A stretch of DNA of 64,000 nt. Origin: Candidatus Magasanikiibacteriota bacterium (GTDB lineage: Bacteria > Patescibacteriota > Patescibacteriia > Magasanikbacterales > GWA2-37-8). Of this stretch, positions 1,567 to 59,587 are shown piece after piece (position 1 is the first letter of the stretch; every line of letters begins with the position of its first letter). The stretch lies in the NCBI GenBank assembly GCA_036744835.1, contig DAIOHD010000001.1:399860-463859 (forward strand), in the 5' to 3' direction. The position numbers were made by a program, and so were the translations under genes. A model generated the notes under the pieces. The model saw nothing but the letters and a program-made list of their open reading frames with translations, was not told the DNA's origin and did no database searches.

Positions 1567-2259
1567 ATGCCCAAACCTCGTCGCGTTGCCATTTTTGACA
1601 TTGACGGAACGATATTTCGCTCCAGTCTTTTGATTGAGATAACCGAAGCCTTGATAGATGAAGGTATATTTTCGCCCAAGACCAGAAATATTTACATGAA
1701 ACCTTACAAAAACTGGTCCAATCGCAAAGATACTTACGAGAAATATATTGATTCGGTAGTAACGGCTTTCTTGAAAAACATCAAAGGTGTTGATTATAAT
1801 ATTTTTACCAAAATTGTCAGAAGGGTGATAAATGCGAAAAAAGACCGGGTTTATCGTTACACTCGCGATTTGGTTCATGATCTCAAGAAGAAAGGTTTTT
1901 TTCTCCTGGCTATTTCTCAATCACCCAAAGAGCTTGTTCAAAATTTCGGTTATAAGATGGGCTTTGATAAAGTTTATGGTCAATATTATGAAGTTGGTAA
2001 AAACAAGAAATTTACCGGTAAAGTTTTATCATTAGAGATGACCGGTAACAAAGCCAATTTACTTAACCGCGCGTTGGAGAGAAACAATATTACTCTGAAA
2101 GGATCTGTTGGAGTTGGGGATAGTGAAAGCGACATTGCTTTTTTGAAAATGGTGGATAATCCGATTTGTTTCAATCCCAATAATAAACTTTATCAACACG
2201 CCAAAAAACATGGATGGAGTGTTATAATAGAAAGAAAAGATGTTGTGTATAAAATATAA
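1567..2259 (+). CDS. HAD-superfamily hydrolase, subfamily IB (phosphoserine-phosphatase-like)
   Basis: N-terminal FDIDGT (HAD motif I) and C-terminal GDSESDIAFL (motif IV). 230 aa. Confidence 0.8.
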   Translation: MPKPRRVAIFDIDGTIFRSSLLIEITEALIDEGIFSPKTRNIYMKPYKNWSNRKDTYEKYIDSVVTAFLKNIKGVDYNIFTKIVRRVINAKKDRVYRYTRDLVHDLKKKGFFLLAISQSPKELVQNFGYKMGFDKVYGQYYEVGKNKKFTGKVLSLEMTGNKANLLNRALERNNITLKGSVGVGDSESDIAFLKMVDNPICFNPNNKLYQHAKKHGWSVIIERKDVVYKI

Positions 2260-2280
2260 TCCGAATTTATAAATTTTATC

Positions 2281-2323
2281 CCGCCCGTCAACAACATGAG
2301 CTGTAGGCGATAGCAGGCGGGCG
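2281..2323. repeat. GC-rich inverted repeat (CCGCCCG ... CGGGCGG) downstream of the HAD gene
   Basis: 7-bp GC stem with a loop of about 27 nt and no U-tract. It may be a terminator or a REP-like element. Confidence 0.4.
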
Positions 2324-2379
2324 AAATTACAAAAAAATAATAAAAATTTAATTTAAAAATTTTTGAATAATATAAAATT

Positions 2380-3582
2380 ATGAAAAATCAATTTATTATT
2401 GAAAATAATATTAATGAATACGTAAAATATTATTCGAAAAGAATTTTGAAAGATCCGGAATTTTATAAAAAAGATGAAGCATATAAATATTTAGCAGTTT
2501 CCGTTTTTCAAAAAGAATTTGATTTAAATAAAAAAGATCTAGCATTAATGCTGAAAAAATCATTTTCAAAAGCTAGAAATTTAGTAGGATCTAGTCAATA
2601 TTTACCAGATTCAGTATTGATTGAATTTGCTAAAAAAGACCCAAGAAAAGTTTGTAAATTATTAAAAAATTTATTAACCGAAGGTTTCCCTGCAAAAGAA
2701 AGAATAGATGATTTTATTGAACAAATAAAAAATAATTTTCCTCTTCAAAAAAAACAATACTATATTGATGCGAGATTTTTGAGTTTTTTATTAGCTGCAT
2801 ATAATCCAAATAAATATTTTTATATAAAATCGAAAGAATATAAAAAATTTGCTCAAATGATTGGTTATGAATTAGATTTAAAAGGTTTATCGCAAGGAGA
2901 AAAATATCAAGCCATGGCTGAATTAGCCGAATTAACTAAAAGTATCTTAAAAAATAATAAAGAATTTAATCAAGTACATGAGTTGATTGTAGAAAGTTTT
3001 GACTATAAAGACCATTCAATAAGTTGGGGGACTTTCGATTTTATTTTTGATGTAGCCAGGAGAGAAGGAAATCAATTTGTTAAAGTTAAAGAGAAAATAA
3101 AAGAACAATCAAAGGTTGTTAATGCAAAGAAGGAATCAAGCGAAGAGTTTTTATTAGAAGAAGAAGTTGTTGACGAGATAAAAGAAAAATCAAAAGATGA
3201 AATTTTACAAGAAGCCAGAGAATTTAAACCTAAAGATAATATTGGGTATAAACAAAAAACAGGTGAATTTAAAGTTAGGATTGATAATGCAAGGCAGAAA
3301 ACTAGAGTAAAAATTTTAGAAAATTATATTTGCCAAGTTTGCGGCTTTACTTTTGAATTTCAAAATTCAGAAGGTAAAAAAAGAAAATATGCTGAAGCCG
3401 ATCACATTATAGAGAAATCTAATGGAGGTACAGAAGAAATAACCAATCTTTGGGTTCTTTGCCCAAATTGTCATATGAAAAAAACATTAAATGTTATCAA
3501 AATTGATCCAATAAAAAAAATAGTGACAGAAAATGGTAAAATAATTAAAATTAACGATAATCATTTGGGTTGGAATAAATAA
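2380..3582 (+). CDS. HNH endonuclease domain protein (unknown N-terminal domain, C-terminal HNH)
   Basis: C-terminus CQVCGF..x18..ADHIIEKSNGGTEEITNLWVLCPNCHMKK is a canonical HNH (CxxC...DH...N...CxxCH) motif. The N-terminal 300 aa has no family I recognise. Confidence 0.75.
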   Translation: MKNQFIIENNINEYVKYYSKRILKDPEFYKKDEAYKYLAVSVFQKEFDLNKKDLALMLKKSFSKARNLVGSSQYLPDSVLIEFAKKDPRKVCKLLKNLLTEGFPAKERIDDFIEQIKNNFPLQKKQYYIDARFLSFLLAAYNPNKYFYIKSKEYKKFAQMIGYELDLKGLSQGEKYQAMAELAELTKSILKNNKEFNQVHELIVESFDYKDHSISWGTFDFIFDVARREGNQFVKVKEKIKEQSKVVNAKKESSEEFLLEEEVVDEIKEKSKDEILQEAREFKPKDNIGYKQKTGEFKVRIDNARQKTRVKILENYICQVCGFTFEFQNSEGKKRKYAEADHIIEKSNGGTEEITNLWVLCPNCHMKKTLNVIKIDPIKKIVTENGKIIKINDNHLGWNK

Positions 3583-3588
3583 ATTTTT

Positions 3589-4815
3589 ATGAAACAATTC
3601 TCTCATTCCAAATTACAAGTTTATGAAAGATGTCCTTTGCAATATAAACTCAAATATCTTTCTGATATCAAAGTTAAGCGTGAGAATACAGTCGAAGCTT
3701 TTATGGGTTCGTGTGTTCATAGTGCATTGGAACTTCTTTATGATGATTTGTTAAAAACCAAACTAAATACATTGAAAGATTTGTTAGCTTTTTATCATAA
3801 AACATGGAAAGAAAATTGGGATGATGAAATCAAGATAAATAATAAAAAGTTTGATAAAAAACATTATTATAATTTGGGTAAGAAATGTATCCAAAATTAT
3901 TATGAAAAATATCACCCCTTTGACCAAGATCAGACTATAGGGATTGAAAATAAAATAAGTTTAAAATGGGGCGCCTATGAAGTAATGGGTTATATAGATA
4001 GGTTGTCTAGAGAAAAAAAGGGTGTTTACGCGGTACATGATTATAAAACCGGTAAAATGATGGAGCAAGAATACGCCGATAAAGATCGTCAATTGGCGCT
4101 TTATGCCATGGCGGTAAAAGAAAAGTTTAAAGAAGCAAAAACAGTGAAGTTGATTTGGCATTATGTCGCTTTTGGCGAAGATATTATTTCGCAACGTTCA
4201 AATGAAGAATTGAAGAAATTGAAAAAAGATATTTTGGAATTGATAAAAGAAATAAATCAAGCGGAAAAAGACGATAATTTTCCGGCTAAAGAAACGATGT
4301 GTGATTGGTGTAGTTTTTGGGAATATTGTCCCAAAAAGAAGCATCTATTCAAAATAAAAAAACTTCCCAAAAACGAGTATTTGAAAGAAAGCGGGGTAAA
4401 ATTGGCTGATAAGTATATTGAATTATCCGAAAAAAAATCAAAAATTAACAAGAAGGCAAAAACAGAAGTTGAAGATATCCAAAATGAAATAAAGAAAGTT
4501 GAAGAAGCCCTCTTGAAATACGCGGAAAAAAATAATATAGAAACTGTCCAGGGAGATAAAGCCAGAGTATTGATAAACAAAAAAAGCGTTTATATTTTTC
4601 CTAATAAAACTTCCGGTTTAGAAAATTATATTAAATTGGAAAAATTATTAAAAGAAACAAAGTATTGGAAAATGATCTCTGTAGTAAATAGTGGAAAATT
4701 GGAAGAGTTATTAGAAAAAGATATTTTTGACAAGGGTTTAAAAAAGAAAATAATAGCTTTGGCTCCAAAAGAAGAAACTATTAAAATTTCCATTAAGAAA
4801 AACAATGAAAAATAG
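3589..4815 (+). CDS. PD-(D/E)XK nuclease, RecB/Cas4-like (PDDEXK_1) with Fe-S-type Cys cluster and C-terminal extension
   Basis: N-terminal Cys (ERCPLQY), GYIDRL...AVHDYKTGK (D...D-x-K), QLALYA (QhxxY) and C-terminal CDWCSFWEYC. This is the Cas4/AddB-nuclease signature. A K/E-rich tail of about 150 aa follows. Confidence 0.75.
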   Translation: MKQFSHSKLQVYERCPLQYKLKYLSDIKVKRENTVEAFMGSCVHSALELLYDDLLKTKLNTLKDLLAFYHKTWKENWDDEIKINNKKFDKKHYYNLGKKCIQNYYEKYHPFDQDQTIGIENKISLKWGAYEVMGYIDRLSREKKGVYAVHDYKTGKMMEQEYADKDRQLALYAMAVKEKFKEAKTVKLIWHYVAFGEDIISQRSNEELKKLKKDILELIKEINQAEKDDNFPAKETMCDWCSFWEYCPKKKHLFKIKKLPKNEYLKESGVKLADKYIELSEKKSKINKKAKTEVEDIQNEIKKVEEALLKYAEKNNIETVQGDKARVLINKKSVYIFPNKTSGLENYIKLEKLLKETKYWKMISVVNSGKLEELLEKDIFDKGLKKKIIALAPKEETIKISIKKNNEK

Positions 4816-5374
4816 TATGGACTTACTTGTTAAGACAACAAAAAATAAGGAAAAGAAAAAAGAAGATAATTCTGATAAAAAAGAATTACTTTCTGTTGAT
4901 AAACATCCAAAAAGTGCGGAAAAATATCGCGAAGAGTGGTTTTTTGTTGATTATAAGCCAGCAAGAGAAAACATTTCTTATCAATTACAATATCTAGAGT
5001 TTTTGATAAATTTATACAATGATTATAAAATGTATTTGACCATAGAGTCTTTACATTGTAAAAATATCCTAATAACCCTAGCTTCCATTTTTGAAAGTGC
5101 TTTATTTGATTTGTTGTATCAAATAAACGAACAAAAAGGATTGGGGTTGGATATTAGAGAAGATTTTGTTAGTTTGATAGAATTGAGTTTTCGACATGGG
5201 TTAATAGATGGAAATATGAAATATTCACTTCATGAACTTCGAAAAGTACGTAATTTTGTACATATTTCTAGTTTGGAACATCAAGAATATCAAGCTTATA
5301 CAATTGAGCAAGTAAACTTATATCTTATATTATTAAATAATTTCCAAAAAAGAATGGAGGAAAAATTTAAATAA
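4805..5374 (+). CDS. hypothetical protein with C-terminal HEPN-like (Rx4-6H) motif; overlaps upstream gene by 11 nt
   Basis: 189 aa. ...YSLHELRKVRNFVHISS carries an R-x6-H / RN..H motif in a predicted helical C-terminal region, reminiscent of Abi/DUF4145-type HEPN domains. This assignment is tentative. Confidence 0.4.
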   Translation: MKNSMDLLVKTTKNKEKKKEDNSDKKELLSVDKHPKSAEKYREEWFFVDYKPARENISYQLQYLEFLINLYNDYKMYLTIESLHCKNILITLASIFESALFDLLYQINEQKGLGLDIREDFVSLIELSFRHGLIDGNMKYSLHELRKVRNFVHISSLEHQEYQAYTIEQVNLYLILLNNFQKRMEEKFK

Positions 5375-9194: not shown

Positions 9195-9223
9195 TTGACA
9201 AACTGGGTTTTTTGTGCTATAAT
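9195..9223 (+). promoter_or_regulatory. sigma-70 promoter TTGACA-17-TATAAT (perfect consensus) with about 115-nt 5' UTR
   Basis: TTGACA at 9195-9200, a 17-nt spacer, and TATAAT at 9218-9223, upstream of the zinc-ribbon gene. Confidence 0.75.
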
Positions 9224-9340
9224 AATGCCAAATAAGTTTGGGTTACGTACGTTTTTGTGACAAACAAGTAGTCGTTCCCAAAACAGGTCGTTTAATTAAA
9301 AATCCAAATAACATTTTGGGAAATAGTCACAAAAATTAAT

Positions 9341-9655
9341 ATGATGGACAGACAAATGTACTCGGTAGATGCTACTTGTGCGAAATGTGGCGCTCATATT
9401 TCTGAGCTTCCTTTCCAACCAAGCGGTGATCGCCCAGTGTATTGTTCTGACTGCAATCGTGAATTCCGCAACCGCAACCGTGATGACAGAGGCGGACGTG
9501 GATTCAACAATCGTGATCGCGGTCCAAAACAAATGTTTGATGTAGATGTTGTATGTGCAGGTTGTGGTGCCAAAATCACCAAATTGCCTTTCATGCCAAG
9601 AGATGGTGGAAAACCTATCTTGTGCATCGATTGTTTGAAAAAACAAAGAGCATAA
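9341..9655 (+). CDS. tandem zinc-ribbon protein with RG/RGG-rich linker (hypothetical nucleic-acid-binding)
   Basis: Two copies of C-x2-CG..I..LPF.P....P(V/I)(Y/L)C.DC are separated by RNRNRDDRGGRGFNNRDRG. Confidence 0.6.
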   Translation: MMDRQMYSVDATCAKCGAHISELPFQPSGDRPVYCSDCNREFRNRNRDDRGGRGFNNRDRGPKQMFDVDVVCAGCGAKITKLPFMPRDGGKPILCIDCLKKQRA

Positions 9656-9663
9656 AACAAAAA

Positions 9664-9690
9664 ATCACTCCTTCGGGAGTGATTTTTTAT
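9664..9690 (+). terminator. intrinsic terminator (ATCACTCC-TTCG-GGAGTGAT + T6)
   Basis: Perfect 8-bp stem with a UUCG loop and a U-tract. Confidence 0.85.
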
Positions 9691-9691
9691 A

Positions 9692-9772
9692 TCCCTCCCT
9701 CTGCCTGAGAGGGAGGTTAGGAGGGAGTGGGAGAGACTCCTCCCTAACCCTCCTCTTGAAGAAGAGGAGGGA
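9692..9772. repeat. three consecutive CCCTCC/GGAGGG hairpins (GC-rich repeat element, intergenic copy)
   Basis: H1 CCTCCCTC..GAGGGAGG, H2 TTAGGAGGGAG..CTCCTCCCTAA, H3 CCCTCCTCTT-GAAG-AAGAGGAGGG. A paralogous segment lies at 9966-10002 inside mnmA. Confidence 0.8.
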
Positions 9773-9820
9773 ATTTTGTAATCTAGAGACCATTGAAAAG
9801 AACGAAATTCTTTGTTATAA

Positions 9821-10942
9821 TTGCTCTATATGAAATCAAAGAAAAAGCCTGTAAAGGTGTTAGTTTGTATGTCCGGTGGTGTAGATTCGTCTGTCGCCGC
9901 CGCTCTTTTGGTTAAGGCCGGATATGATGTTACCGGCGCGTTTATGGTGAATTATGATGAGGTTTCCTCCTCTGCCCGAGAGGGGGCTAGGGGGAGTGGG
10001 AGCTGTTGGCGAGGGGATTATCAAGATGCTCTGCGAGTCGCTGCTAAACTTCATATTCCACTTCTACGTTTGAATTTTGTTCGGGAATACAAAAAAGCGG
10101 TTTTGGATTATATGTACGCTGAATATAAAAAAGGTAGAACTCCAAATCCGGATGTTTTGTGTAATAAATTTGTGAAGTTTGGGTTTTGGTTGAAAAAAAC
10201 AAAAGAACTCGGTTTTGGCTATATGGCGACGGGTCATTACGCGAAGTTAAGTAGAAAGTTGAAAGTAGAAAGTAGAAAGTTAAAAGATTTCGAAATTAAA
10301 TTATTACAAGCGAAAGATGACAACAAGGATCAAACTTATTTCTTGCATCAATTAAATCAAAATCAATTAAAACACGTCATGTTTCCTGTTGGCGGATATA
10401 TCAAAGATGAAGTTCGTAAATTGGCGGATAAATTTGATTTACCAACTGCCAAAAAAGAAGAAAGCATGGGTATTTGTTTTATCGGAGAAGTGCCAATGAA
10501 AGAATTTTTGCAGAAAAAAATAAAAACTAAAAAAGGAAAAATAATTTTAAATAATAGTAAAGAAGTTTTGGGCGAACACGAAGGCATCCCTTTTTATACT
10601 ATCGGACAAAGATTGGGTTTGAATAATAAACCTTATTTTGTGGTAAAAAAAGACGCAAAGAAAAATATTTTGTTTGTTGGATATGAAAATGACGAGGAAC
10701 TTTTGAAAAAAGAAATTGAAATAGAAAATGTGAATTGGATAAGTGGACAAAAGCCGAAATTGCCGTTAAAATGTGAAGTAAGGCTACGACACAGGCAACC
10801 CTTACAGCAGTGTCATTGCGAGACCGCAGGTCGCGGTAATCTTATTGTAAAGTTTAGTAACCCTCAAAAAGCAGTAACACCCGGTCAGTTTGCGGTTTTA
10901 TATAGCAAAGGTGTTTGTCTTGGTGGGGGAGTTGTAAAATAA
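9821..10942 (+). CDS. mnmA: tRNA-specific 2-thiouridylase MnmA
   Basis: PP-loop SGGVDSS, the motifs GRTPNPDVLCNK and NKDQTYFL, and the C-terminal AVTPGQFAVLY...GGG. The true start is probably ATG 9830. Contains two repeat-derived in-frame insertions (see findings). Confidence 0.9.
   Translation: MLYMKSKKKPVKVLVCMSGGVDSSVAAALLVKAGYDVTGAFMVNYDEVSSSAREGARGSGSCWRGDYQDALRVAAKLHIPLLRLNFVREYKKAVLDYMYAEYKKGRTPNPDVLCNKFVKFGFWLKKTKELGFGYMATGHYAKLSRKLKVESRKLKDFEIKLLQAKDDNKDQTYFLHQLNQNQLKHVMFPVGGYIKDEVRKLADKFDLPTAKKEESMGICFIGEVPMKEFLQKKIKTKKGKIILNNSKEVLGEHEGIPFYTIGQRLGLNNKPYFVVKKDAKKNILFVGYENDEELLKKEIEIENVNWISGQKPKLPLKCEVRLRHRQPLQQCHCETAGRGNLIVKFSNPQKAVTPGQFAVLYSKGVCLGGGVVK
10247..10280 (+). repeat. tandem AGTAGAAAGT x3 repeat inside mnmA coding sequence
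   Basis: AAGTTAAGTAGAAAGTTGAAAGTAGAAAGTAGAAAGTT encodes KLSRKLKVESRKLK, an insertion relative to the E. coli MnmA alignment. Confidence 0.7.
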
Positions 10943-11182: not shown

Positions 11183-11255
11183 GTCATCCCCGCGAAGGCG
11201 GGGATCCAGGAAAACATAAAATAACCCACTGGATTCCCGCCTTCGCGGGAATGAC
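11183..11255. repeat. long GC-rich inverted repeat (27-nt arms, each arm itself a CCCCGC-GAAG-GCGGGG-type hairpin) upstream of alaS
   Basis: GTCATCCCCGCGAAGGCGGGGATCCAG ... CTGGATTCCCGCCTTCGCGGGAATGAC. Cruciform-capable, with no U-tract on the + strand. Confidence 0.6.
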
Positions 11256-13103: not shown

Positions 13104-13550
13104 ATGATATTGAATAAATATCTAAATTATCCTTGGTCGCACCGTGAACAATTTGTAAAATATTTTTTTATCGGTGTTTCGGGGACAATTTTAGATATTC
13201 TAACACTTTGGATTTTGAAAGAATTTTTTGGTTTACTACCAGTGATAGCTGTTGTTGTCAATCAGATCTTTATGTTGCTTTACATATTTTTTCTAAATAA
13301 AAAATTTAGTTTTCAAACCAAGGGAGATACACGCAAACAAATGGTCAGATTTTTTATCTTAGCCGGAGCCAATTATTTGTTTGCAATAAGTTGGATGTGG
13401 TTGTGGAGTCAATATTTCGGGTACAATTATGTATTGGTTAGAATCTGTAATATTGCCTTGGCCGTAGCTTGGAATTTTTTGTTATATAGAGAGTGGGTAT
13501 ATAAAGTGAGAAATGACCAAGTCCCAATGACCAATGACCAAAATCTCTAA
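13104..13550 (+). CDS. GtrA-family membrane protein
   Basis: 4-TM protein of about 130 aa with KYFFIGVSGTILDILTLWIL. The C-terminal codons (NDQVPMTNDQNL) are supplied by a CCAATGACCAA repeat. Confidence 0.65.
   Translation: MILNKYLNYPWSHREQFVKYFFIGVSGTILDILTLWILKEFFGLLPVIAVVVNQIFMLLYIFFLNKKFSFQTKGDTRKQMVRFFILAGANYLFAISWMWLWSQYFGYNYVLVRICNIALAVAWNFLLYREWVYKVRNDQVPMTNDQNL
13511..13548. repeat. (CCAAT-N)n repeat, single arm (AAATGACCAAGTCCCAATGACCAATGACCAAAATC)
   Basis: Same family as 1041-1096. It overlaps the GtrA ORF 3' end. Confidence 0.7.
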
Positions 13551-17170: not shown

Positions 17171-17596
17171 ATGGTAAAAACAGTAAAAGCTACATTGAAA
17201 AATGTAAAAAATAAAGATGAAAATCGCGCCGTTGGTCGCCGTAAATCGGCTTCTGCTCGTGTTCGTATAGGCAAGGGTGAAGGTAAAATTACGGTTAACG
17301 GCAAAGATTACAAAGAATATTTTTCTTTTTTTGAACAAGGTGTTGTTGTAACTCCTCTAAAAACCTTGGCTAAAGAAAAAGATTTGGATATTTCTGTAAA
17401 AGTGAACGGTGGTGGTAAAAAAGGACAAGCCGTAGCCGTGCAACACGGCATTGCTCGTGCTTTATTAAAATGGAACGAGGACTTTAGAAAAACCTTGAAA
17501 GCCGCCAATTTATTAACTCGAGATCCTCGAGTTAAAGAAAGAAAGAAGCCGGGTTTGAAAAAAGCTCGCCGTGCCCCACAGTGGTCGAAGCGTTAA
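17171..17596 (+). CDS. rpsI: 30S ribosomal protein S9
   Basis: ...GRRKSASARVRIGKGEGKITVNG...GLKKARRAPQWSKR, the characteristic S9 C-terminus. Confidence 0.95.
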   Translation: MVKTVKATLKNVKNKDENRAVGRRKSASARVRIGKGEGKITVNGKDYKEYFSFFEQGVVVTPLKTLAKEKDLDISVKVNGGGKKGQAVAVQHGIARALLKWNEDFRKTLKAANLLTRDPRVKERKKPGLKKARRAPQWSKR

Positions 17597-17718
17597 GCGA
17601 GACCAGTGTGGCAGAGGGGGGTCGGGGGAACTGGGTGTTCCACCGCGGAGGAGAGCAGCGAAGCGCTGAGAACCGTGGGTTCTTAGAGCGCGCAGCGCCC
17701 GCAAATGGTCCAAACGTT
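17597..17718 (+). pseudogene. GC-rich degenerate second copy of the rpsI 3' end (frame-disrupted remnant ending ...LRARSARKWSKR*)
   Basis: AGA GCG CGC AGC GCC CGC AAA TGG TCC AAA CGT TAA aligns codon-for-codon with the native rpsI end AAA GCT CGC CGT GCC CCA CAG TGG TCG AAG CGT TAA. About 65% GC versus about 30% for the window, and an in-frame TGA lies upstream. Confidence 0.55.
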
Positions 17719-22495: not shown

Positions 22496-23914
22496 TTAAT
22501 ACTCCAATTTTTTATGTAGAAGAAAAATGACGAAAACTATTCCCATCACATGGAATAATACCGGAGAAGTGATATTGATAATCAAAAGAGAAATTAGAAG
22601 TGATAATGAAAGTTGATTGTTTTTTGTTTGTTTAAATAATATCCAAATCAAAGTGAGCCAAATGATAAATCCGATAATTCCCAGTTCACCAATAATTTCT
22701 AGGTAACCCCAATCGTAATGTGGAGTAGTAATTTCTTTTTTAAAAACAGGGGAGTAAACAACCAAACTGTCGCCTAAACCGTTGCCAACAATCGGATGAA
22801 CTTTTATTTTTTCCCAAATTTTTGGCAATAACATCATGCGGGAAAGAGAACTATTTTCGGAATTGGGATCAACGATACTTTGAGCGCGACCAAGAAGTAA
22901 ATTTAATCCTGTGTCTTTACCGTGAGTTATTATTAAATTTGTTGAACAAAAAATAGTTAGATAAATGATGGCGGATAGAATATAAATAGAAAAAGCTTTT
23001 TTCCAATTAGTTTTGTTGATAAGAAATAAAGCCCCAAAAATTATCGCCAAGTGATAAATGCGGGTAAAGTTAATTCCCAAAACAAAAAGTAAAGCGGATA
23101 GTACGGCGATATTTTGCCAAGTAATTTTTTCTTTGATTGTTTTGTAAAGCCAATAAAGTAAAATTGGGGCAAGTAGTAGTTGTTCATTGAGAACTAGTCG
23201 ATAAAAATTTCCTCCCATTTCCGTGATTTTCCCCAAACCGATATCGCGATACCAATGGTAATAAGGACTAAACATCGCCAGCCACCCAGAAGAATATCCG
23301 ATAAAAGTCAATAAAATAAATAAAGCATTGCCGATAATCGCGGCCAGAATCATTTTTTTGGCAAAAGCAATAAATTCAGTGTTGTCCAAAAGTTCTTTGA
23401 GTGGAAAGTAATAAAAAAGAAAAAAATAGGGGATAGCGTCGGAAAAAACTAAATTTACGGCATGTCCGTTGAAAAAACCGACAATAGTGGAAATTCCAGT
23501 GGATAACACCAGTAAACCAAAAATTATACTTATGATTTTGTTTTCTTTAATCAAAGGAATCAATTGTTTGTGTTTTAATTTTTGGAAGATAAAAATCAAA
23601 GCCGAAGATATCAAAAGCAAAGTACGAAGTGACAGTCCAAAAGCGGAAAGAAATCCTCCAGCCCCGCCCAAAATCAATTCAAACGCGATAAAATACCAAC
23701 CTTCTCTGCGACGGGCAATTAGCAAAGCGGCGGTAATGCTCAAAAAGAATAATGTCAAAACAGTATTCATCCAATCACCCGGTTGGAAATAAAAAGAGAA
23801 GACGCGGAGTAGCGCGTAGTCAAGTAAGAGTAGATATGCGGGGTAAGTGGAGAACATAATTATAAAGAATATCAAATTTCCAATATCCAATGTCAAATCA
23901 ACGACAAATATCAA
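22496..23914 (-). CDS. O-antigen ligase/polymerase family membrane protein (Wzy_C-like)
   Basis: Multi-TM protein with the motif HYDWGYLEIIGELGIIGFIIW (H..YLE..GE.G..G). The N-terminal 20 codons are encoded by the CCAAT repeat, so the start is probably the internal Met. Confidence 0.65.
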   Translation of the reverse strand: MIFVVDLTLDIGNLIFFIIMFSTYPAYLLLLDYALLRVFSFYFQPGDWMNTVLTLFFLSITAALLIARRREGWYFIAFELILGGAGGFLSAFGLSLRTLLLISSALIFIFQKLKHKQLIPLIKENKIISIIFGLLVLSTGISTIVGFFNGHAVNLVFSDAIPYFFLFYYFPLKELLDNTEFIAFAKKMILAAIIGNALFILLTFIGYSSGWLAMFSPYYHWYRDIGLGKITEMGGNFYRLVLNEQLLLAPILLYWLYKTIKEKITWQNIAVLSALLFVLGINFTRIYHLAIIFGALFLINKTNWKKAFSIYILSAIIYLTIFCSTNLIITHGKDTGLNLLLGRAQSIVDPNSENSSLSRMMLLPKIWEKIKVHPIVGNGLGDSLVVYSPVFKKEITTPHYDWGYLEIIGELGIIGFIIWLTLIWILFKQTKNNQLSLSLLISLLIINITSPVLFHVMGIVFVIFLLHKKLEY

Positions 23915-23975
23915 ATTTGTAATTGGACATTTGGACTTTGAAATTGATTGGAAATTGGTAATTTGACATTTGAAA
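23869..23975. repeat. (CCAAT-N)n / (ATTGG-N)n inverted repeat pair (TCCAATATCCAATGTCAAATCAA ... AATTGGACATTTGGACTTTGAAATTGATTGGAAATTGG)
   Basis: Same family as 1041-1096/1436-1490. Spans the 5' end of the O-antigen-ligase ORF and the 3' end of fmt. Confidence 0.75.
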
Positions 23976-23976
23976 T

Positions 23977-24870
23977 TTATTTTAGGTATCCATTCACAAA
24001 CGCCTTTGTATCCATCGGTTTCTTTCCCTCAATCTGTAATTCAAGTACTTCGATTGAATTTTGTCCGCATCCAATAAACAACTTTCCGTTTTCGGCAATA
24101 AATTTTCCTTGTTCAATATTTTTTTCAATAGGTTTGATATCCAAAAGTTTTACTCGCTTATCTCCCCAAAAAGTAAATATTCCTGGCCAAACATAAAGTC
24201 CGCGGAATTGATTGTAAATATCTTGTGCAGACTTTGTAAAATCTATTTTGCCGTCTTCACGATCAAACATTTTGCATAAAGTTTTTTCTTCGTGATTTTG
24301 TTCTTGCGGTTTTGTTTTTCCATCCAAATATTCTTTTATGGTTTTATTCAGAAGTTTACAAGCCGGTAGTAACATTTTTTCACTTAGAGTCAAATAATTA
24401 TCGTCATATGCAATGGTGATTTTTTCTTGCGCTAAAATAGGTCCATGATCCATTTTACTATCCATAAGCATAATAGTTGTGCCAGTTTCTTTTTCGCCGT
24501 TTAAAATTGCGGATTGAATAGGGGAGGCACCGCGGTATTTGGGAAGTAGGGAAGTATGAATATTGATACTTCTATGTTTAGCTGAATCTAACACTATTTG
24601 CGGGATGATAAGTCCGTATTGGCAAACAATATTTAAATCCGCATCCAAATTTGGCATTTCATAGTTTTTTAAACTCTCTGGTTGGAAAATAGGAATATTT
24701 TTTTCTTTTGCCAATATTTTCACCGGAGACATTTGTATTTCTTGTTTCCTACCTGTGGGTTTATCTGGCTGGGTAAATACGGCGATAACTTCAAAATCGG
24801 AATCATTTATTAGTGATTCCAAAACTCCTCTGCCAAATTTTTCCGTTCCAAAAAATACAATTTTTATCAT
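23977..24870 (-). CDS. fmt: methionyl-tRNA formyltransferase
   Basis: MIKIVFFGTEKFG...HTSLLPKYRGASPIQSAILNGEKETGTTIM. Confidence 0.9.
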   Translation of the reverse strand: MIKIVFFGTEKFGRGVLESLINDSDFEVIAVFTQPDKPTGRKQEIQMSPVKILAKEKNIPIFQPESLKNYEMPNLDADLNIVCQYGLIIPQIVLDSAKHRSINIHTSLLPKYRGASPIQSAILNGEKETGTTIMLMDSKMDHGPILAQEKITIAYDDNYLTLSEKMLLPACKLLNKTIKEYLDGKTKPQEQNHEEKTLCKMFDREDGKIDFTKSAQDIYNQFRGLYVWPGIFTFWGDKRVKLLDIKPIEKNIEQGKFIAENGKLFIGCGQNSIEVLELQIEGKKPMDTKAFVNGYLK

Positions 24871-40746: not shown

Positions 40747-41716
40747 ATTTCTTTGCTCCGCTGTGAAAATTTTTATACACATTTTTGAGACCAGCATTAG
40801 TAATGTGCGTATAAATCTGGGTAGTAGCGACATTACTATGACCTAGTAATTCCTGGACCGAGCGCAGATCAGCACCATGTGACAGTAAATCTGTCGCAAA
40901 ACTATGTCGTAAGGTATGCGGAGTAGCTTCTACTGGCAATCCAGCCATCATTGTATACTTGCGTACTAAACTTTCTATAGAACGAGGAGATAGTCGACGT
41001 TCACTGTCTTTTTCACCACCATGGAAATAGTTAATAAACAGGGGAGGGAGCATGTCTTTTCGAACCTTGAGATATTTAGTCAACCATTCAAGAGTGCGTT
41101 TAGAGAAATAAACGGTCCGCATCTTACCGCCTTTGCCGATAATGTTTAACTCAACATAGTCCGGAATTTTTCCAGCTATTAAATCATTTATATTAAACTG
41201 CTTTAGGTTAAGCGAAGTAAGCTCGGAAACCCGCATTCCAGTAGAGAAGAGGACCTCAAGTATGGCTTTATCCCGCAAACCGCTTGAATTAGAGGTATCG
41301 GGCATGGATAGGAGCTTTTCTATTTGGTCAAAATTTAAAAATTTAATTTGCTTGTCTTTGTCGGTCAATTTTGGTAATTTAATTTTTTCTGATGGTAATG
41401 TAACAATATCCTTATCTGTAAGATATTTAAGTAAGTTACGTAAAGCACGTAGATAGTAGCTCTGGGAAGTCTTTTTAAGATAAGCGCCCTTATAGTCCTG
41501 TTTACGAGATAAATAGAGACGAAACTCCCAAACATGCTCGGGAGTTAGCTCATGTGGTAAAAGATCGCTTAACTTAGACTTATCAAGCCAATCAACAAAA
41601 ACTTTGAGAAAATTATGATAGTTCTTAGAAGATACTGGAGAAAGACCCTTCTCAACCTCACAGTATTCCAAAAACACGGGGATATGTTTAATAAGTGGTT
41701 TATTTGATTTTTGCAT
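40745..41716 (-). CDS. tyrosine site-specific recombinase XerC/XerD family
   Basis: C-terminal ...HTLRHSFATDLLSHGADLRSVQELLGHSNVATTQIYTHI (RHR-Y catalytic residues) and an N-terminal SAM-like core-binding domain. Confidence 0.85.
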   Translation of the reverse strand: MQKSNKPLIKHIPVFLEYCEVEKGLSPVSSKNYHNFLKVFVDWLDKSKLSDLLPHELTPEHVWEFRLYLSRKQDYKGAYLKKTSQSYYLRALRNLLKYLTDKDIVTLPSEKIKLPKLTDKDKQIKFLNFDQIEKLLSMPDTSNSSGLRDKAILEVLFSTGMRVSELTSLNLKQFNINDLIAGKIPDYVELNIIGKGGKMRTVYFSKRTLEWLTKYLKVRKDMLPPLFINYFHGGEKDSERRLSPRSIESLVRKYTMMAGLPVEATPHTLRHSFATDLLSHGADLRSVQELLGHSNVATTQIYTHITNAGLKNVYKNFHSGAKK

Positions 41717-46676: not shown

Positions 46677-46719
46677 GTTTATATTATATCATAACTTGTA
46701 ACTTTCTACTTTCAACTTT

Positions 46720-48690
46720 TTACTTCAAATATTTCGTTCCCCACCAGCGCAAAAATTCGTTGGCTACCGGCATAGCAGCAGTAGAACCCTCTTTCCCCTC
46801 TTCTATAAGCACTGTAATGACGATTTTAGGGTTATTGTAAGGCGCAAAACCGGTAAACCAAGCATGTGGATCCGATTTCTTACTCCATTGAGCAGTACCT
46901 GTTTTACCAGTAGCTAAAAATGGCAAAGAATTTAACAGTTGGCAACTACCTGTTTTAACACACTCCCTCATCCCTTCTTTAACTATGTTTATATTATTTT
47001 CAGAAATAAAGTTACTATTAGTTATAGTAACGGGAATTTCATAAGTATTTTTTTGCACCGTGTCAACTATATATTTGCCTAAATGCGGTTGTACAATTTT
47101 TCCTCCATTGGCTATAGCTGCAGTCCAAACCGCCACCTGAAGCGGAGTAACCAGTAGGTCTCCTTGACCGATTGATAGATTATAAGTATCACCGACATAC
47201 CAACGTTCTTTTTTTGTTTCCAATTTCCAATCTTTGCTAGGTAAAAAACCGGGTTGTTCTCCGGGCAAATCTATTCCTGTATTTTTACCCAAATTAAATT
47301 TTTCCATATATTCTATGATTGTATCTACACCCAAACCGGAAAAATTTTTATAACCTCCGCCGATATAATAAAAATAAGTATTGACCGACCAAGCCAAAGC
47401 ACGAACGATATTGGTATTACCATGTCCGCCGGCTCGCCAATCTTTAAAAAACCAATCTCCAACCTCTATCCCTCCAGAACTTAAAAAAGCTGTAGTTTTA
47501 GAAACGATTTTTTCTTGTAAAGCTGCTGCCGCCACTACCAATTTAGCTGTAGAACCAGAAGGGTATGTTCCGGCAATCACCCGGTTGTACAATGGTAATG
47601 TTTTGTCATATAAATATTTACGATATTGAGAAACAGAAATTCCGCCGGAAAAATGATTATTATCAAACGCCGGAAGGGAAACCATAGCAATTATTTCTCC
47701 GTTTTGCGGATTCATAGCAACTGCTACCCCCTTTTTTAAATTCATGGTTTTTAGTTTAGTGCTTAATATTTTCTCTAATTTTACTTGTGCTTCTACATCA
47801 AGCGAAAGAATCAAGTTCTTTCCCGGAGTTGGAGGTTCTTCAGCTAAAATACTTTGCTCTCTTCCAAAAGCATCCACCTCAACCTTCTTTTTTCCATAAA
47901 CTCCGCGTAAAATTTCTTCATAAGTTTTTTCAAGACCGGTTTTACCGATATTATCAGTTGATAAATAACCTTTGGTTTTCAAAGTCGCCAGATCAAATTC
48001 GTTTAGTTTTGCAAGATAGCCCAATAAATGTGATAAGCTCAATGTCTGTTCTTTTTCATCTTTGCTTTGATTAAGATAAAGACGTTTTGTTCCTTTTTCA
48101 ATTAAAATCCCCGGTAAATTGGCGTTTTGAATATAAAGCTTCAAAGCTGTTTCGTGATCTAAATTTTCTTTAACAACCAGAGATTCATAACTATAATTTC
48201 CGTATTTATCAAGAATTTTTTGAATTTCTTCTTTTTGAACTCCGGTAATTTCAGAAAGTTGAGAAATTATTTTTTCTGCCTCTTCCGCTTTTTTAGGAAA
48301 ATCTTGTGGCACTATGGATAAGGAAAAACTGGGAATATTTTGTACCAATTGTGTTTGAAATCTATCATATACAATACCTCTTTCCGCGACTATCGGTCGT
48401 AAACGAATACGATTATTTTCAGCCAAATTACGATAGTCTTCCGCTTTATAAATTTGTAAAAAAGCAACTCTGGCGATCAAGACACAGACCGCCAAAACGA
48501 TAAAAATAAAAAATAATAATAATTTTTTTGAAGATAATGATGCCCCCAAAAAATCCCCGGTTTCATTTTGTGGTCTTTGTTTACCGATATTTTTTTCGAA
48601 ATTAAAAGATTCTTCAGTCCAAGTTTTACTGAATTTTCCTTGTAAGTCCCCGTAGCTTTTGGTAAAAAATTCGAAAAAATTCTTATTCAT
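46720..48690 (-). CDS. mrdA: penicillin-binding protein 2 (peptidoglycan D,D-transpeptidase)
   Basis: N-terminal TM and dimerisation domain, transpeptidase SxxK (STAK), SxN, KTG (GKTGTA). Sits downstream of mreBCD. Confidence 0.9.
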   Translation of the reverse strand: MNKNFFEFFTKSYGDLQGKFSKTWTEESFNFEKNIGKQRPQNETGDFLGASLSSKKLLLFFIFIVLAVCVLIARVAFLQIYKAEDYRNLAENNRIRLRPIVAERGIVYDRFQTQLVQNIPSFSLSIVPQDFPKKAEEAEKIISQLSEITGVQKEEIQKILDKYGNYSYESLVVKENLDHETALKLYIQNANLPGILIEKGTKRLYLNQSKDEKEQTLSLSHLLGYLAKLNEFDLATLKTKGYLSTDNIGKTGLEKTYEEILRGVYGKKKVEVDAFGREQSILAEEPPTPGKNLILSLDVEAQVKLEKILSTKLKTMNLKKGVAVAMNPQNGEIIAMVSLPAFDNNHFSGGISVSQYRKYLYDKTLPLYNRVIAGTYPSGSTAKLVVAAAALQEKIVSKTTAFLSSGGIEVGDWFFKDWRAGGHGNTNIVRALAWSVNTYFYYIGGGYKNFSGLGVDTIIEYMEKFNLGKNTGIDLPGEQPGFLPSKDWKLETKKERWYVGDTYNLSIGQGDLLVTPLQVAVWTAAIANGGKIVQPHLGKYIVDTVQKNTYEIPVTITNSNFISENNINIVKEGMRECVKTGSCQLLNSLPFLATGKTGTAQWSKKSDPHAWFTGFAPYNNPKIVITVLIEEGKEGSTAAMPVANEFLRWWGTKYLK

Positions 48691-51806: not shown

Positions 51807-54734
51807 TTAAGCTCTAAAATCACAAATATCCTTGAAATCACAGTGTTCGCAAGTATATTTTTCCGGTTTGGGAGAAAAATCCAAAGCTTTGATTTTCTCT
51901 ATGATTTCTATGATTTTTGTTTTTATTTTATCCAATTCCTTTTCTCCCCCGATAAAAGTCAACTTACTCTGATCGGTTAAATAAAGATAAATCAAAGAAC
52001 TAACTTTTCCGATATTTTTAAATTCCGGCAATTCTTCCATTGCCAATTGATAAATAAGTAACTGATCTTTATCATCTGAATCAAGTTTTTCCTTAGGGTT
52101 GCCGGTTTTATAATCAATAATACACAAAGTACCGTCCGGAAGTTGTTCGATGCGATCGATTTTTCCGGAAAGCAGGTGCCCGCCGATTTTATACTTAAAA
52201 CTTTGTTCCAAGGCTAAAGGCAATGTCCAATTGTTTTCATTACTACGATAATAATCGCGTAGTATTTCTTTACCGCGCAAATAATAATCCTCTTTTTGTT
52301 TGGCGCTTTTATACCAATCATCGATAAAAGATTGTTCGTAAATTTCCAACAATTCTTCGAGAGTTGGTGTTTGTATTTTTTCTTTTAAAATAGAATTTTT
52401 TTGTGGTAAAGCAAACAGGTTTTCTTGTTTGACAGAATTTAATTCTCGCATTCGTTCATAAAATTTTTGTAAAGTATTATGTATACTTGAACCAAACGAT
52501 AATTGCGGACCGCCTTTGGTTTGTAATTTTAAAATATTACGCAATTTATATTGATAAGGGCAACTTTCATAAGAATTTATTTGCGAATAAGAAAAACTTT
52601 TTGGTAGTTCATACACAAACTCCCCCTGATCTTCAATTTTAATTGTTTTTGACGGTAGATTATTCTTTTTTTCTTTTTTTATAAATTTTTCCACTTTAAA
52701 ATTTAGTTCTTCTAAAAAACGACTGATTTTTTTATCTCGTATCCCACCATAATCCGTAGCAGAAGTAAAAAACAATTTTTCTTTGGCTCGAGTAGCACCG
52801 ACATAAAATAACCTTCTTTCTTCTTGAATATGAGAATCCCCTTCCGGAGGTTGTTCTTTTATTAATTCTGTCGGGATTTCTATCCCCTCGCTTTTACGTC
52901 GAGAAGGAAAACGATCGTCAACCAAATTAACCATAAAAACATATTTGAATTCCAAACCCTTGGACATGTGAACAGTCATAATGTTTACCGAATCCGGGGT
53001 TTCTGTTGGTTGTTTGAAAATCCCAATATCTCCGGCATCTAGCACATCGGAAAAATAAACAATAAAATCAGCCACTTTTGCACCAGGAATCATTTTTTCA
53101 TAATTTTCCACATAAGCAAAGTATTGGGTCAATTGATTAATCTGACGAATAATTTCCCGATTTCCTTTGTTTTCACCGTCAACTAGATATTTTAGATAAC
53201 CACTGTTTTCCAAAAAATTATAAAGTATTCTAGTTGGTTTTTCACCGCGTTGTTGTTTCATTCCTTCATGCAAAAATTCTAAAACTTTAAAAAATATTTT
53301 TTCTCCCTGCTCACTAAGCGCATATTCCTTACCACGCTTAAGAGCTTCATAATAAGATATGCTTTTGCGAGAAGCAAAAAATAACATTTTTTGCATGTCA
53401 TTTTCACTGATATTTAAAAATGGCAACCGAAGCAATCGATAAACGGCGGTATTTTCATGATAACCATGAATAGCTTTGAAAAAATTATAACAGTCCAAAA
53501 CTATTTCTTGACGAAATAATCCTCCACTACTCAAAAATTCATAGGGCACACCATGGTTTTCAAAAGAATTCATAAAAGGTTCAGCGTGGCTATTGGCACG
53601 CACCAAAACAGCAAAATCATCCCAAGAAACATTTTCTTCTTTTTCTTTTATTTTTTTTATTTCTTCCGTAACAAATTTTATTTCTTCATCCAAAGTATGA
53701 AAATGGTTATGAATAACTTCGCCTTTCTTGATATCTCCTTTAGAAACTAATTTTTTATCGATTTGTAATTTTTTTTCCAAACGGTCGGGATTATTATTAA
53801 TAATACTTTTATAAGCAGTGTCCAATATGTTTTGTCCACTACGATAATTTTCAGTTAATATTACCTCCGCACAATCGGAAAAATCTTGTTTAAAACGTAA
53901 AATATTGGAAACATTGGCTCCGCGAAAAGCATAGATACTCTGATCATCATCTCCAACCACGGTTAATTGAGCACCGCCTTCAGTCAAAAGTTTAACCAAT
54001 TCGTATTGTGCATAATTTACATCTTGAAATTCATCAACCAAAATATATTTAAAACGTTCGTGAAACTTTCTTAAAATATTTTTTCTTTTTTTAAAGAGTT
54101 GCACACTATAATAAAGTAAGTCTCCAAAATCTAAAGCATTATTATCCACTAACAGCTGATTATAGACATGGTAGGCATCGGCGATTTCCGTTAAACGATT
54201 TTTTTCATCAAGATTTTCTTTGTCTAATTTTAGATTTTGCGCATAATCCAAATATTCTTGCGCGGAAATCAATTCATCCTTACATTTACTAAAGTGTTTG
54301 AGCATCTCATGAATATGGCGCACCGGATTACCCAAAGGTTTATAATAATCCAACTGAAATTTATCCAAATTTTTTTTCATGAGCAACCAAGCATCGGTTT
54401 GTGTTACAATTTTAAATTGATTTGATAAACCAATATCTAAACCGAAATTTTCCAAAATTCTTTGCGCAAACGCATGAAAAGTGGAAATTTGCATATCCGT
54501 ATAACCGATAGACAATATTTCATCCATTCTCTCTTGCATTTCAGCGGCCGCTTTTTCATTGAAAGTCAAAGCTAAAATTTCTTCTGGTTTGGCTAAATTA
54601 TTTTCCAACAAATAAGCAATTTTTTGCGTAATAACTGTAGTTTTACCGGTCCCTGCACCAGCTACGATCATCAACGGTCCGCCAGTGTATTCCACTGCGG
54701 TTTTTTGCGCTTTATTTAAAGTATTTTTCGACAT
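51807..54734 (-). CDS. UvrD/PcrA-type SF1 helicase fused to C-terminal PD-(D/E)XK (RecB/Cas4-like) nuclease domain
   Basis: N-terminal AGAGTGKTTVI (Walker A) with UvrD motifs. C-terminal ...ESCPYQYKL...IDRIEQLPDGTLCIIDYKTGN...QLLIYQLA...CEHCDFKDIC (nuclease plus Cys cluster). Confidence 0.85.
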   Translation of the reverse strand: MSKNTLNKAQKTAVEYTGGPLMIVAGAGTGKTTVITQKIAYLLENNLAKPEEILALTFNEKAAAEMQERMDEILSIGYTDMQISTFHAFAQRILENFGLDIGLSNQFKIVTQTDAWLLMKKNLDKFQLDYYKPLGNPVRHIHEMLKHFSKCKDELISAQEYLDYAQNLKLDKENLDEKNRLTEIADAYHVYNQLLVDNNALDFGDLLYYSVQLFKKRKNILRKFHERFKYILVDEFQDVNYAQYELVKLLTEGGAQLTVVGDDDQSIYAFRGANVSNILRFKQDFSDCAEVILTENYRSGQNILDTAYKSIINNNPDRLEKKLQIDKKLVSKGDIKKGEVIHNHFHTLDEEIKFVTEEIKKIKEKEENVSWDDFAVLVRANSHAEPFMNSFENHGVPYEFLSSGGLFRQEIVLDCYNFFKAIHGYHENTAVYRLLRLPFLNISENDMQKMLFFASRKSISYYEALKRGKEYALSEQGEKIFFKVLEFLHEGMKQQRGEKPTRILYNFLENSGYLKYLVDGENKGNREIIRQINQLTQYFAYVENYEKMIPGAKVADFIVYFSDVLDAGDIGIFKQPTETPDSVNIMTVHMSKGLEFKYVFMVNLVDDRFPSRRKSEGIEIPTELIKEQPPEGDSHIQEERRLFYVGATRAKEKLFFTSATDYGGIRDKKISRFLEELNFKVEKFIKKEKKNNLPSKTIKIEDQGEFVYELPKSFSYSQINSYESCPYQYKLRNILKLQTKGGPQLSFGSSIHNTLQKFYERMRELNSVKQENLFALPQKNSILKEKIQTPTLEELLEIYEQSFIDDWYKSAKQKEDYYLRGKEILRDYYRSNENNWTLPLALEQSFKYKIGGHLLSGKIDRIEQLPDGTLCIIDYKTGNPKEKLDSDDKDQLLIYQLAMEELPEFKNIGKVSSLIYLYLTDQSKLTFIGGEKELDKIKTKIIEIIEKIKALDFSPKPEKYTCEHCDFKDICDFRA

Positions 54735-54804
54735 AAATAGTTATTTTTAGTGTCTTTATCATAACTCAAAAAAACAAAAAAGACAACTCTTGGGTTTCGG
54801 GTTA

Positions 54805-54837
54805 AAAAACAAATAAAAAACCCCGGGAGTCCCGGGG
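54805..54837 (-). terminator. intrinsic terminator on minus strand (CCCCGGGACTCCCGGGG + T-run)
   Basis: GC hairpin at 54821-54837, preceded on the + strand by A15. Confidence 0.8.
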
Positions 54838-54843
54838 ATAAAG

Positions 54844-55005
54844 CTATTCCATTCCTATACTATCCAATGGTTCTTTGTGACCACATATATCACAGACATA
54901 TTCCTGATCTTTTATAGTCATCTTGATTAAGCAAGCTCGGCAAACAATGGTTTCTCTGGTTTCGTTCTTGGTATCCTCGATTTTTTTTTCAGTAATCCCA
55001 TCCAT
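54844..55005 (-). CDS. hypothetical 53-aa zinc-ribbon protein (CxxC...CxxC)
   Basis: MDGITEKKIEDTKNETRETIVCRACLIKMTIKDQEYVCDICGHKEPLDSIGME with SD AGGAGG. The ORF-track version starts at an upstream Met. Confidence 0.5.
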   Translation of the reverse strand: MDGITEKKIEDTKNETRETIVCRACLIKMTIKDQEYVCDICGHKEPLDSIGME

Positions 55006-55183
55006 ATTTTTCCTCCTTTCTTTTTCTTTTCGAGTTGATAAAAAGATACAAATGATAAAAGTACGGCGCAACTACCATGGTTATTTTAACCAAAATAAAA
55101 AAGATAATAATTGCCAGTACTCCAAAAATTTTTCCCAGCATTCTCCAAAAAAAACCGATTAACCTTTCAAACTTTTTACGCAT
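54989..55183 (-). CDS. hypothetical 64-aa membrane protein
   Basis: ORF from the track. SD GGAGAAGGGGGG. One TM helix. Its end overlaps the start of the zinc-ribbon gene. Confidence 0.4.
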   Translation of the reverse strand: MRKKFERLIGFFWRMLGKIFGVLAIIIFFILVKITMVVAPYFYHLYLFINSKRKRKEEKYGWDY

Positions 55184-55320
55184 TCCCCCCTTCTCCTTTT
55201 AAAATAATTGACAATCTTTTCAATTCCTTTTACCAAAAAAAATACGATAAACGCCGAAACAATGATACATATCGCCATAAAAATTCCCAAAAAAACCAAA
55301 ATCTCCAAAATAATTTTCAT
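55159..55320 (-). CDS. hypothetical 53-aa membrane protein (not in track)
   Basis: MKIILEILVFLGIFMAICIIVSAFIVFFLVKGIEKIVNYFKRRRGECVKSLKG with SD GGAGGG 5 nt upstream. Promoter TTGACA-17-TAATAT on the minus strand at about 55385-55415. Confidence 0.3.
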   Translation of the reverse strand: MKIILEILVFLGIFMAICIIVSAFIVFFLVKGIEKIVNYFKRRRGECVKSLKG

Positions 55321-56106: not shown

Positions 56107-56111
56107 TTTTA

Positions 56112-59554: not shown

Positions 59555-59587
59555 AAACTATTTTTTAAATAAATTTAAAAAATGAAA

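Follow-up and report, generated by a model that had tools for sequence, protein, structure and literature searches.

Tiny selfish repeats that colonize essential enzymes in-frame are best known from Rickettsia. Fungal mitochondria contain GC clusters that are mobile, as well as double-hairpin or “byp” elements, which are short G+C-rich hairpins in an A+T-rich genome and also occur within protein genes; the byp elements are organellar and are skipped by the ribosome. The small dispersed repeats (SDRs) of Nostoc are 21 to 27 nt long, belong to the hairpin type, and nest in one another, and they are not known to occupy housekeeping enzymes in-frame in a systematic way. The Rickettsia palindromic elements (RPEs) form dispersed palindromic families that are found in intergenic DNA and often in-frame within unrelated housekeeping genes, at sites that the protein fold can accommodate; there are several coexisting families, and the mechanism of their mobilization is unresolved (PMC10969869). 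Some miniature inverted-repeat transposable element (MITE) copies, namely, those of the ERIC, BOX, and cyanobacterial types, fuse in-frame with host genes (PMC10969869), and single-stranded hairpin DNA is the form in which REPINs are believed to move (PMC3116915). Here we describe a repeat family, GGAGGG/CCCTCC, in a 64,000-nt stretch of Candidatus Magasanikiibacteriota bacterium (GenBank assembly GCA_036744835.1, contig DAIOHD010000001.1, positions 399,860 to 463,859; referred to here as the window), in which one copy precedes mnmA, the gene for a tRNA 2-thiouridine synthase, and another lies inside it.

The two segments, at 9689-9774 and 9962-10002, are probably (at roughly 0.6, in our estimate) two copies of one dispersed RPE-like short-repeat family that spreads by copy and paste and is then filtered for reading frame and loop position. 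The family is dispersed and sharp-ended, its copies are recent or homogenized and are polymorphic for presence or absence, and the intragenic ones are in-frame and free of stop codons in surface loops. Hairpin DNA, most likely single-stranded, would be copied and pasted by a trans-acting machinery, and selection would keep only insertions that preserve the frame, lack stop codons, and fall in tolerant loops. Such a filter would yield the loop hot spots seen in mnmA, and homologous recombination between strains would shuffle filled and empty alleles. The first-pass annotation, made from the letters of the window, had proposed a small palindromic element that colonizes coding sequence in-frame as RPEs do, a proposal now supported by ortholog alignment, a genome scan, a structure model, and sister strains.

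The kinship of the in-gene and intergenic copies, claimed at the outset, is borne out by local alignment of 9962-10002 with 9693-9733 (35 identities, 2 mismatches, and 3 single-base gaps in 40 columns). The alignment score of 49 lies above every score obtained when either partner or both were dinucleotide shuffled (2,000 to 5,000 shuffles; mean, 17 to 19; maximum, 39; 0/5,000 reaching 49). Within the 64 kb, the 15-mer CTCTGCCYGAGAGGG has exact matches at these two sites only. The in-gene copy belongs to the CCCCC/GGGGG subfamily and its intergenic neighbor to the CCTCC/GGAGG subfamily. Because the subtypes differ, we reject the possibility that the former is a local duplicate of the latter; the two are members of one family, not direct parent and offspring.

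The three consecutive hairpins that had been noticed 5′ of mnmA were recovered as hairpin A, a central hairpin, and hairpin B (Table 1), with a combined RNA fold of −67.5 kcal/mol (z = −5.95 versus shuffles). The in-gene copy alone folds no better than shuffles (z = −0.6). In the 85-nt form, two similar palindromes flank the central hairpin, and the whole can also fold as one long hairpin. This form recurs at 90 to 96% identity amid unrelated flanks in five other loci (L006, L007, L025, L028, and L036; L numbers are our labels for loci outside the window).

The intergenic element sits between the terminator of the upstream gene and the mnmA promoter. The upstream gene, which encodes a zinc-ribbon protein, stops at 9655, and a terminator hairpin that acts in both directions comes next (9659-9688). 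Since the promoter places the element upstream of the transcription start, the element is outside the 5′ untranslated region (UTR). A role as the 5′ UTR or a riboswitch of mnmA was rejected, as the element is upstream of the −35 box and the same slot holds unrelated repeats in close relatives (L042, L046, and L047). Rfam 15 gave no match at the gathering score over the whole window and three subregions, the region of the element having solely subthreshold hairpin-like (miRNA-type) matches, and a scan for tRNA and tmRNA found none. A sharply bounded block at 9653-9799 (terminator, element, and 25 nt reaching the −35 box) is identical at 144 to 146 of 147 positions (98 to 99%) to the lineage of L004, L045, L043, and L040, and the coding and promoter DNA flanking it is 60 to 81% identical to that lineage. 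The dispersed unit spans 85 nt as opposed to the 147 nt of near identity, and the block therefore points either to a tract of recombination or to constraint.

A wide search for the GGAGGG hairpin agrees with the initial proposal in revealing a dispersed family with sharp ends, ~60% of whose copies are in-frame in housekeeping genes. The search pattern had 25 specified bases (CTCTGCCNGAGAGGG, 2 to 12 unspecified bases, and GGGAGTGGGAG) and was scanned over one genome per species for 185,579 species, giving 37 exact matches in 36 loci. One genome carries at least 15 copies; a scan of viral contigs for the element gave no match. Several of the matching records are titled Magasanikbacteria or Patescibacteria, and the family appears to be confined to Magasanikbacteria-like Patescibacteria. 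Many element-bearing contigs (among L006 to L041) are titled “uncultured Gammaproteobacteria” yet encode Magasanikbacteria-type genes. These labels are doubtful because L037 shares mnmA with a Patescibacteria contig (L002) and L040 is an ortholog of the window spacer.

Flank conservation over 40 copies ends at −8 and +1, which defines a unit of ~41 nt. Its consensus is WTNTCCCC-CTCT-GCCNG-AGAG-GGGG, a spacer of 1 to 6 nt, and then GGGGGAGTGGGAG. There are three subtypes (CCCCC/GGGGG, CCTCC/GGAGG, and TCTCC/GGAGA), and the stem is complementary in each. Among 24 distinct copies, 92.6% of the cells of the hairpin A stem are paired, one pair changes from C-G to U-A in 8/24 copies, and the covariation score was reached by none of 500 shuffles; these compensatory changes represent few independent events, because subfamilies inherit them. 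Two orders of the modules were seen, namely, A-tail-x-ACTCCC-B (window) and ACTCCC-B-A-tail (mnmA of L002). In the B-A arrangement, a 5′ ACTCCCCC is complementary to a 3′ GGGGGAGT, and the short form lacks such ends. The units are at least 66% G+C in a genome of ~33 to 41% G+C (~33% for the window).

Of the 40 distinct copies, 24 lie within long open reading frames (ORFs), where they leave the host frame open and the alternative frames are short. The 41-nt unit is found in at least 16 unrelated genes, as well as in intergenic DNA. Hosts identified with Pfam are MnmA (two sites), Dus, RadA, TruB, a radical-SAM RlmN-like protein, an RluA-type pseudouridine synthase, UvrD, a tRNA U5-methyltransferase, DnaE, Tgt (two sites), TrmD, QueA, RecR, IleRS, and LigA. 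All of these host families (15/15) act on DNA or RNA, whereas the share among window genes is roughly 40%; part of this difference could stem from effects of ascertainment and tolerance. The roles of the hosts in L008 to L041 cover tRNA and rRNA modification, replication, repair, and aminoacylation, and many host genes carry additional repeat-derived peptides, such as PLTKGGRGGV and LPLSKREREGVAEVS.

Of ten independent same-strand sites, nine encode SPSA(R/G)EG, for which a binomial estimate gives a chance of ~1e-3 under equal frame use, and the majority of the opposite-strand sites read PS(R/Q/L)AEG(D/E). This strong frame bias, together with the lack of stop codons, speaks for translation of the inserts and for a filter imposed by selection. 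Depending on the length of the spacer, the tail is read in one of three different frames. Translational bypass, in which an insert goes undecoded and has stop codons or a break in the frame with matching take-off and landing codons, was rejected, since every intragenic copy is open and in-frame and the frame bias is strong.

The window MnmA contains all three MnmA Pfam domains, and its closest named relatives are from Candidatus Magasanikbacteria (Patescibacteria, or candidate phyla radiation [CPR]). A 906-kb contig and independent assemblies encode an identical protein; thus, the structure of the gene is not a one-off assembly product. Compared with the MnmA structures 2hma and 9hlv of the PDB, the window protein has two segments that are each 8 residues longer, in agreement with the extra residues that had been claimed at two sites. 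At site 1, 16 residues instead of 8 separate NY/NW from Cys, and at site 2 the window protein has SRKLKVESRKLK where the PDB proteins have RVARD. The insert segments include NYDEVSSSAREGARGSGSCWR as well as the latter. Among close orthologs, the NY-to-CW distance is 8 to 9 residues in 56 of 96 scorable sequences, with a tail up to 39, and the modal length of the site 1 loop is that of the PDB homologs. The inserts are thus lineage specific, the PDB homologs from other phyla having the shorter loop.

The sister contig L004, which is syntenic with the window at ~80% DNA identity over 11.5 kb, lacks both mnmA inserts, and filled and empty alleles occur among relatives at about that level of identity. 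A DNA alignment of nine close relatives forms a mosaic at site 1: the window and L003 have the GGAGGG insert, L044 has a different insert at the same point, and L004, L042, L043, L045, L046, and L047 have none. In an AlphaFold model of the window MnmA (mean predicted local distance difference test score [pLDDT], 81.6), residues 44 to 57 form an unstructured segment and residues 146 to 152 the tip of an extended beta-hairpin, both with a pLDDT below 50. The gaps in the alignment to the PDB proteins coincide with the insert points. Both inserts are accordingly located in low-confidence loop or hairpin-tip regions of the model, as would be expected for surface loops, and the GGAGGG insert would encode a disordered Ser/Gly/Arg-rich loop in MnmA.

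The mnmA orthologs, whose products are 337 to 448 residues long, have at least five loops of variable length that are filled by different repeats, among which we distinguished the GGAGGG, GTCATCCCCGCG, and CATTGCGAG families and period-7 arrays. The GGAGGG unit is found at sites 1 and 3 across orthologs, and ALAGRSEAK repeats are among the other fillers. The AAGTAGA period-7 array occupies site 2 in the window and in L042 to L044 and site 4 in L042 to L044, CCAAT-type period-7 arrays are found in the mnmA genes of L002 and L003, and a GTCATCCCTGCGAAGGCAGGGATCC hairpin is in-frame at site 2 in L046 and L047. At site 5, relatives carry CATTGCGAG...GCAATC with a compensatory change from ACC/GGT to GCC/GGC, and L003 and L043 have an additional 21-nt hairpin nested in the loop of the site 5 hairpin.

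Several observations weigh against copy and paste by a trans-acting machinery followed by selection. The window holds only two copies of the GGAGGG family, and its ~50 ORFs of at least 120 amino acids (aa), searched with Pfam, include no transposase, reverse transcriptase, or insertion sequence (IS) element and no cognate REP-associated tyrosine transposase (RAYT)/Y1 gene. A tblastn search with IS608 TnpA and an HUH/Y motif scan over ~500 kb of related loci found nothing, a result at the level of a lead. The elements are 95 to 100% identical where the genes are 66 to 67% identical, which speaks for recent or homogenized copies, but this contrast is inflated by the 25 positions fixed in the search pattern. 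No repeated flank indicative of a target-site duplication is present in 40 copies, and the same flanks give as a target motif only a T at −7 and at −5. The units measure 40 to 44 nt, lengths that three does not divide, and mnmA has gained a net 24 to 33 nt, though the conserved unit is at least 37 nt. In the window, ~19 nt were replaced by 43 nt, and at site 3, ~6 nt were replaced by 39 nt. Because filled alleles have gained less than a unit over empty ones, host codons were overwritten or trimmed; flank identities of 65 to 80% leave the clean junctions between such alleles unresolvable. The overwritten codons and the lack of target duplication suggest that imprecise recombination fits better than precise transposition. 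In addition, translation of the inserts is inferred from the reading frames.

With no target duplication, overwritten codons, three frames for the tail, and no transposase in the window or related loci, short-patch illegitimate recombination is a serious rival for the insertion step. Here, the family would multiply without dedicated mobile machinery, through ectopic gene conversion or through recombination of the short-patch illegitimate or microhomology-mediated kind, and hairpin-forming single-stranded fragments, derived from other genomic copies or from DNA taken up, would replace a short stretch of the target. The replacement of host codons instead of clean addition and the unit lengths that are not multiples of three fit this explanation, as do the clearly mosaic alleles of different strains and the sharply bounded 147-nt tract of near identity around the intergenic copy. 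However, the ends of the family are sharp and uniform over 40 copies, and so many copies in a single genome (at least 15) would be more usual for an element whose ends are defined. Microhomology at the junctions could not be demonstrated at 70 to 80% flank identity. We therefore regard spread by recombination alone as possible, at odds of perhaps one in five, and as the strongest of the alternatives.

A broader proposal is that a hairpin-directed process of Magasanikbacteria-like Patescibacteria writes modular cassettes of several families, including the period-7 arrays, preferentially into loops of DNA and RNA enzymes and homogenizes them genome-wide, in which case the loops would be a maintained and possibly functional layer of protein and mRNA variation. 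We consider this unlikely.

Slightly less likely again is the view that the inserts are recruited functional modules rather than passengers, acting either as a hairpin in mRNA or DNA (in pausing, processing, or insulation) or as a Ser/Gly/Arg-rich loop in the handling of nucleic acids. The identified hosts, all of which act on DNA or RNA, speak for such a view, and so do elements that are better conserved than their hosts, a compensatory change in the stem, and an intergenic block that is 98 to 99% identical across lineages between flanks of 60 to 81%. Yet close relatives manage without the inserts, unrelated sequences fill the same loops in other lineages, and the loops are predicted to be disordered. 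Moreover, the two preferred frames give unrelated peptides, and the fold of the in-gene copy is no better than that of its shuffles.

The last explanation, that the long loop is ancestral in the clade and the short alleles are deletions, or that G-rich low-complexity coding sequence converged, is very improbable and already largely refuted: the “empty” loop GAAGCTTTGACAAGT does share 8/15 bases with the tail of the element and 11/15 with the different insert in L044, so that some decay or ancestry is possible, but the loop of 8 to 9 residues is found in PDB homologs from other phyla and in the majority of orthologs, chance similarity is rejected by the shuffle tests, and the 41-nt unit recurs in unrelated genes and intergenic DNA.

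In comparison with the systems described so far, the elements are RPE-like in-frame repeats that differ from RPEs in size, composition, modularity, and host lineage. Like RPEs, they form hairpins (more weakly in the in-gene window copy), are found both between genes and in-frame and stop-free within ORFs, encode a conserved peptide in fold-compatible loops, and comprise several families. RPEs are ~100 to 150 bp long and are known from Rickettsia, whereas the units here are 41 or 85 nt long and belong to Patescibacteria; the two are likened by behavior. Other differences are that the present units are G+C-rich in an A+T-rich genome, are modular (A, B, and tail, in more than one order), overwrite host codons, and share the loops of one gene with other families.

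The resemblance to repetitive extragenic palindromes (REPs) and REPINs consists of short (~20- to 40-nt) imperfect palindromes in many copies, with doublets or triplets that can fold as separate hairpins or as one long hairpin (PMC3116915), and a neighboring third family forms a clean inverted doublet (Table 1). However, REPs and REPINs are extragenic by definition, while ~60% of the copies here are intragenic, and neither the window nor the related loci were found to contain a RAYT/Y1 gene. The MITEs (ERIC, BOX, Correia, and cyanobacterial) are likewise small, nonautonomous, structured repeats. As a rule, MITEs are longer than 100 bp and A+T-rich, insert in A+T-rich intergenic DNA, carry inverted repeats at their termini, and duplicate the target site, in contrast to the absence of duplication in 40 flanks and the G+C-rich units of 41 to 85 nt found here. 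The byp elements differ in being skipped, whereas here the host frame stays open through every intragenic copy, with a strong bias in frame use that points to translation. Nesting as in SDRs is seen in the site 5 inserts of L003 and L043 and also in P0076, but in another phylum and with other sequences.

The first-pass annotation had called such behavior unusual outside Rickettsiales, which needs to be qualified: in-frame intragenic repeats are not unique to that group, as shown by the ERIC, BOX, and cyanobacterial MITEs cited in PMC10969869. A literature search whose coverage left out most subscription journals found no description of RPE-like in-frame repeats in CPR bacteria or Patescibacteria, and the absence of an earlier description is weak evidence of novelty. 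In-frame colonization also appears in free-living or episymbiotic ultra-small CPR bacteria, in which several families reuse the same loops. The inserts inflate protein lengths, disturb phylogenomic alignments of these lineages, and create spurious antisense ORFs, a probable example being the 67-aa “gene” annotated across the GGAGGG element in L004. The filled and empty alleles present in many metagenomic populations amount to a natural experiment on insertion-tolerant loops and give direct access to the mechanism of mobilization.

Table 1. Repeat copies, their component hairpins, and associated features of the mnmA region and window
Feature	Position	Strand	Basis and remarks
Full-length 85-nt three-hairpin copy of the GGAGGG/CCCTCC family, CCTCC/GGAGG subtype	9689-9774	+	nhmmer E = 1e-11
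Hairpin A, CCTCCCTCT-GCCTG-AGAGGGAGG, 9-bp stem, GCCNG loop	9694-9716	+	Fold; compensatory change
Central hairpin, G-rich tail TTAGGAGGGAGTGGGAG paired with ACTCCTCCCTAA	9717-9747	+	Fold; arrangement recurs in L006, L007, L025, L036, and L040
Hairpin B, CCCTCCTCTT-GAAG-AAGAGGAGGG, 10-bp perfect stem	9748-9771	+	Fold; B-type accompanies A elsewhere, in either order
mnmA promoter, TTGAAA, 17-nt spacer, TATAAT	9793-9821	+	Near consensus; hexamers kept in relatives
mnmA (tRNA 2-thiouridine synthase), host gene	9830-10942	+	Pfam PF03054, PF20259, and PF20258; PDB matches at 1e-83
41-nt short form (hairpin A and G-rich tail), CCCCC/GGGGG subtype, mnmA site 1, in-frame, encodes VSSSAREGARGSGS	9962-10002	+	Alignment; absent from L004 and other close relatives; loop pLDDT below 50
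Period-7 mini-array, AAGTAGA × 4.6, mnmA site 2, in-frame, encodes part of KLSRKLKVESRKLK	10247-10282	+	Tandem Repeats Finder (TRF; 10249-10280); absent from L004 and L045
Hairpin-type repeat TGTCATTGCGAG...GGTAATC (CATTGCGAG family), mnmA site 5, C-terminal barrel	10811-10841	+	GC island; length equal to that of PDB homologs, insertion status uncertain
Inverted (REPIN-like) doublet of a third family (GTCATCCCCGCGAAGGCGGGGATCC; GTCATCCCCGCGAAGGCGGGGATCCAG)	11183-11255	.	Spacer between a CBU_0592-like small ORF and alaS; family also at mnmA site 2 in L046 and L047
Intergenic copy of the period-7 AAGTAGA family	46692-46725	-	Inverted repeat I15; overlaps the stop codon of a PBP2-like gene, in the spacer after that gene

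The second mnmA insert had been described as a triple tandem 10-mer; it is a real repeat, but TRF shows the period to be 7. Its recurrence on the reverse strand, noted as 17 nt, proved to be longer: complementarity is 88% over 34 nt and reaches 96% over 25 nt within them. The array in mnmA is a second, nonpalindromic family with the same behavior. Many degenerate period-7 mini-arrays of ~30 nt are found elsewhere in the window (AATGACC, ATTGGGA, CCCAATG, CATTGGG, AAATTTG, and others), at 1022-1093 and 1437-1493, 59585-59711 and 60350-60457, 13512-13541, and 23913-23981. In many cases, the arrays stand as inverted pairs on either side of small genes, such as an ORF of the 23S-rRNA-IVS-protein family (1002-1445) and a rubrerythrin gene (59749-60270). 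A GtrA-like gene (13104-13550) that is a 439-nt insertion relative to the sister contig L004 also ends in a period-7 array.

Other G+C-rich segments were observed in the window. One is a 156-nt island at 17562-17717, covering the end of rpsI and extending downstream of it, for which even a permissive threshold gave no Rfam match. A 1.8-kb region at 54734-56554 has no ORF of at least 90 aa, solely Cys-rich ORFs of ~75 aa, and contains three G+C-rich islands with no Rfam match. In L004, an additional 107-nt G+C-rich hairpin block (9222-9328 of that contig) is located between the TrwB-like and zinc-ribbon genes, and the window lacks this block. Genes of the recombination and nuclease type in the window encode an HNH endonuclease (400 aa) adjoining a PD-(D/E)XK nuclease (2380-4812), a XerC/D-type tyrosine recombinase (40748-41716), and, as the only others, an AddA-like UvrD-PDDEXK protein and PriA.

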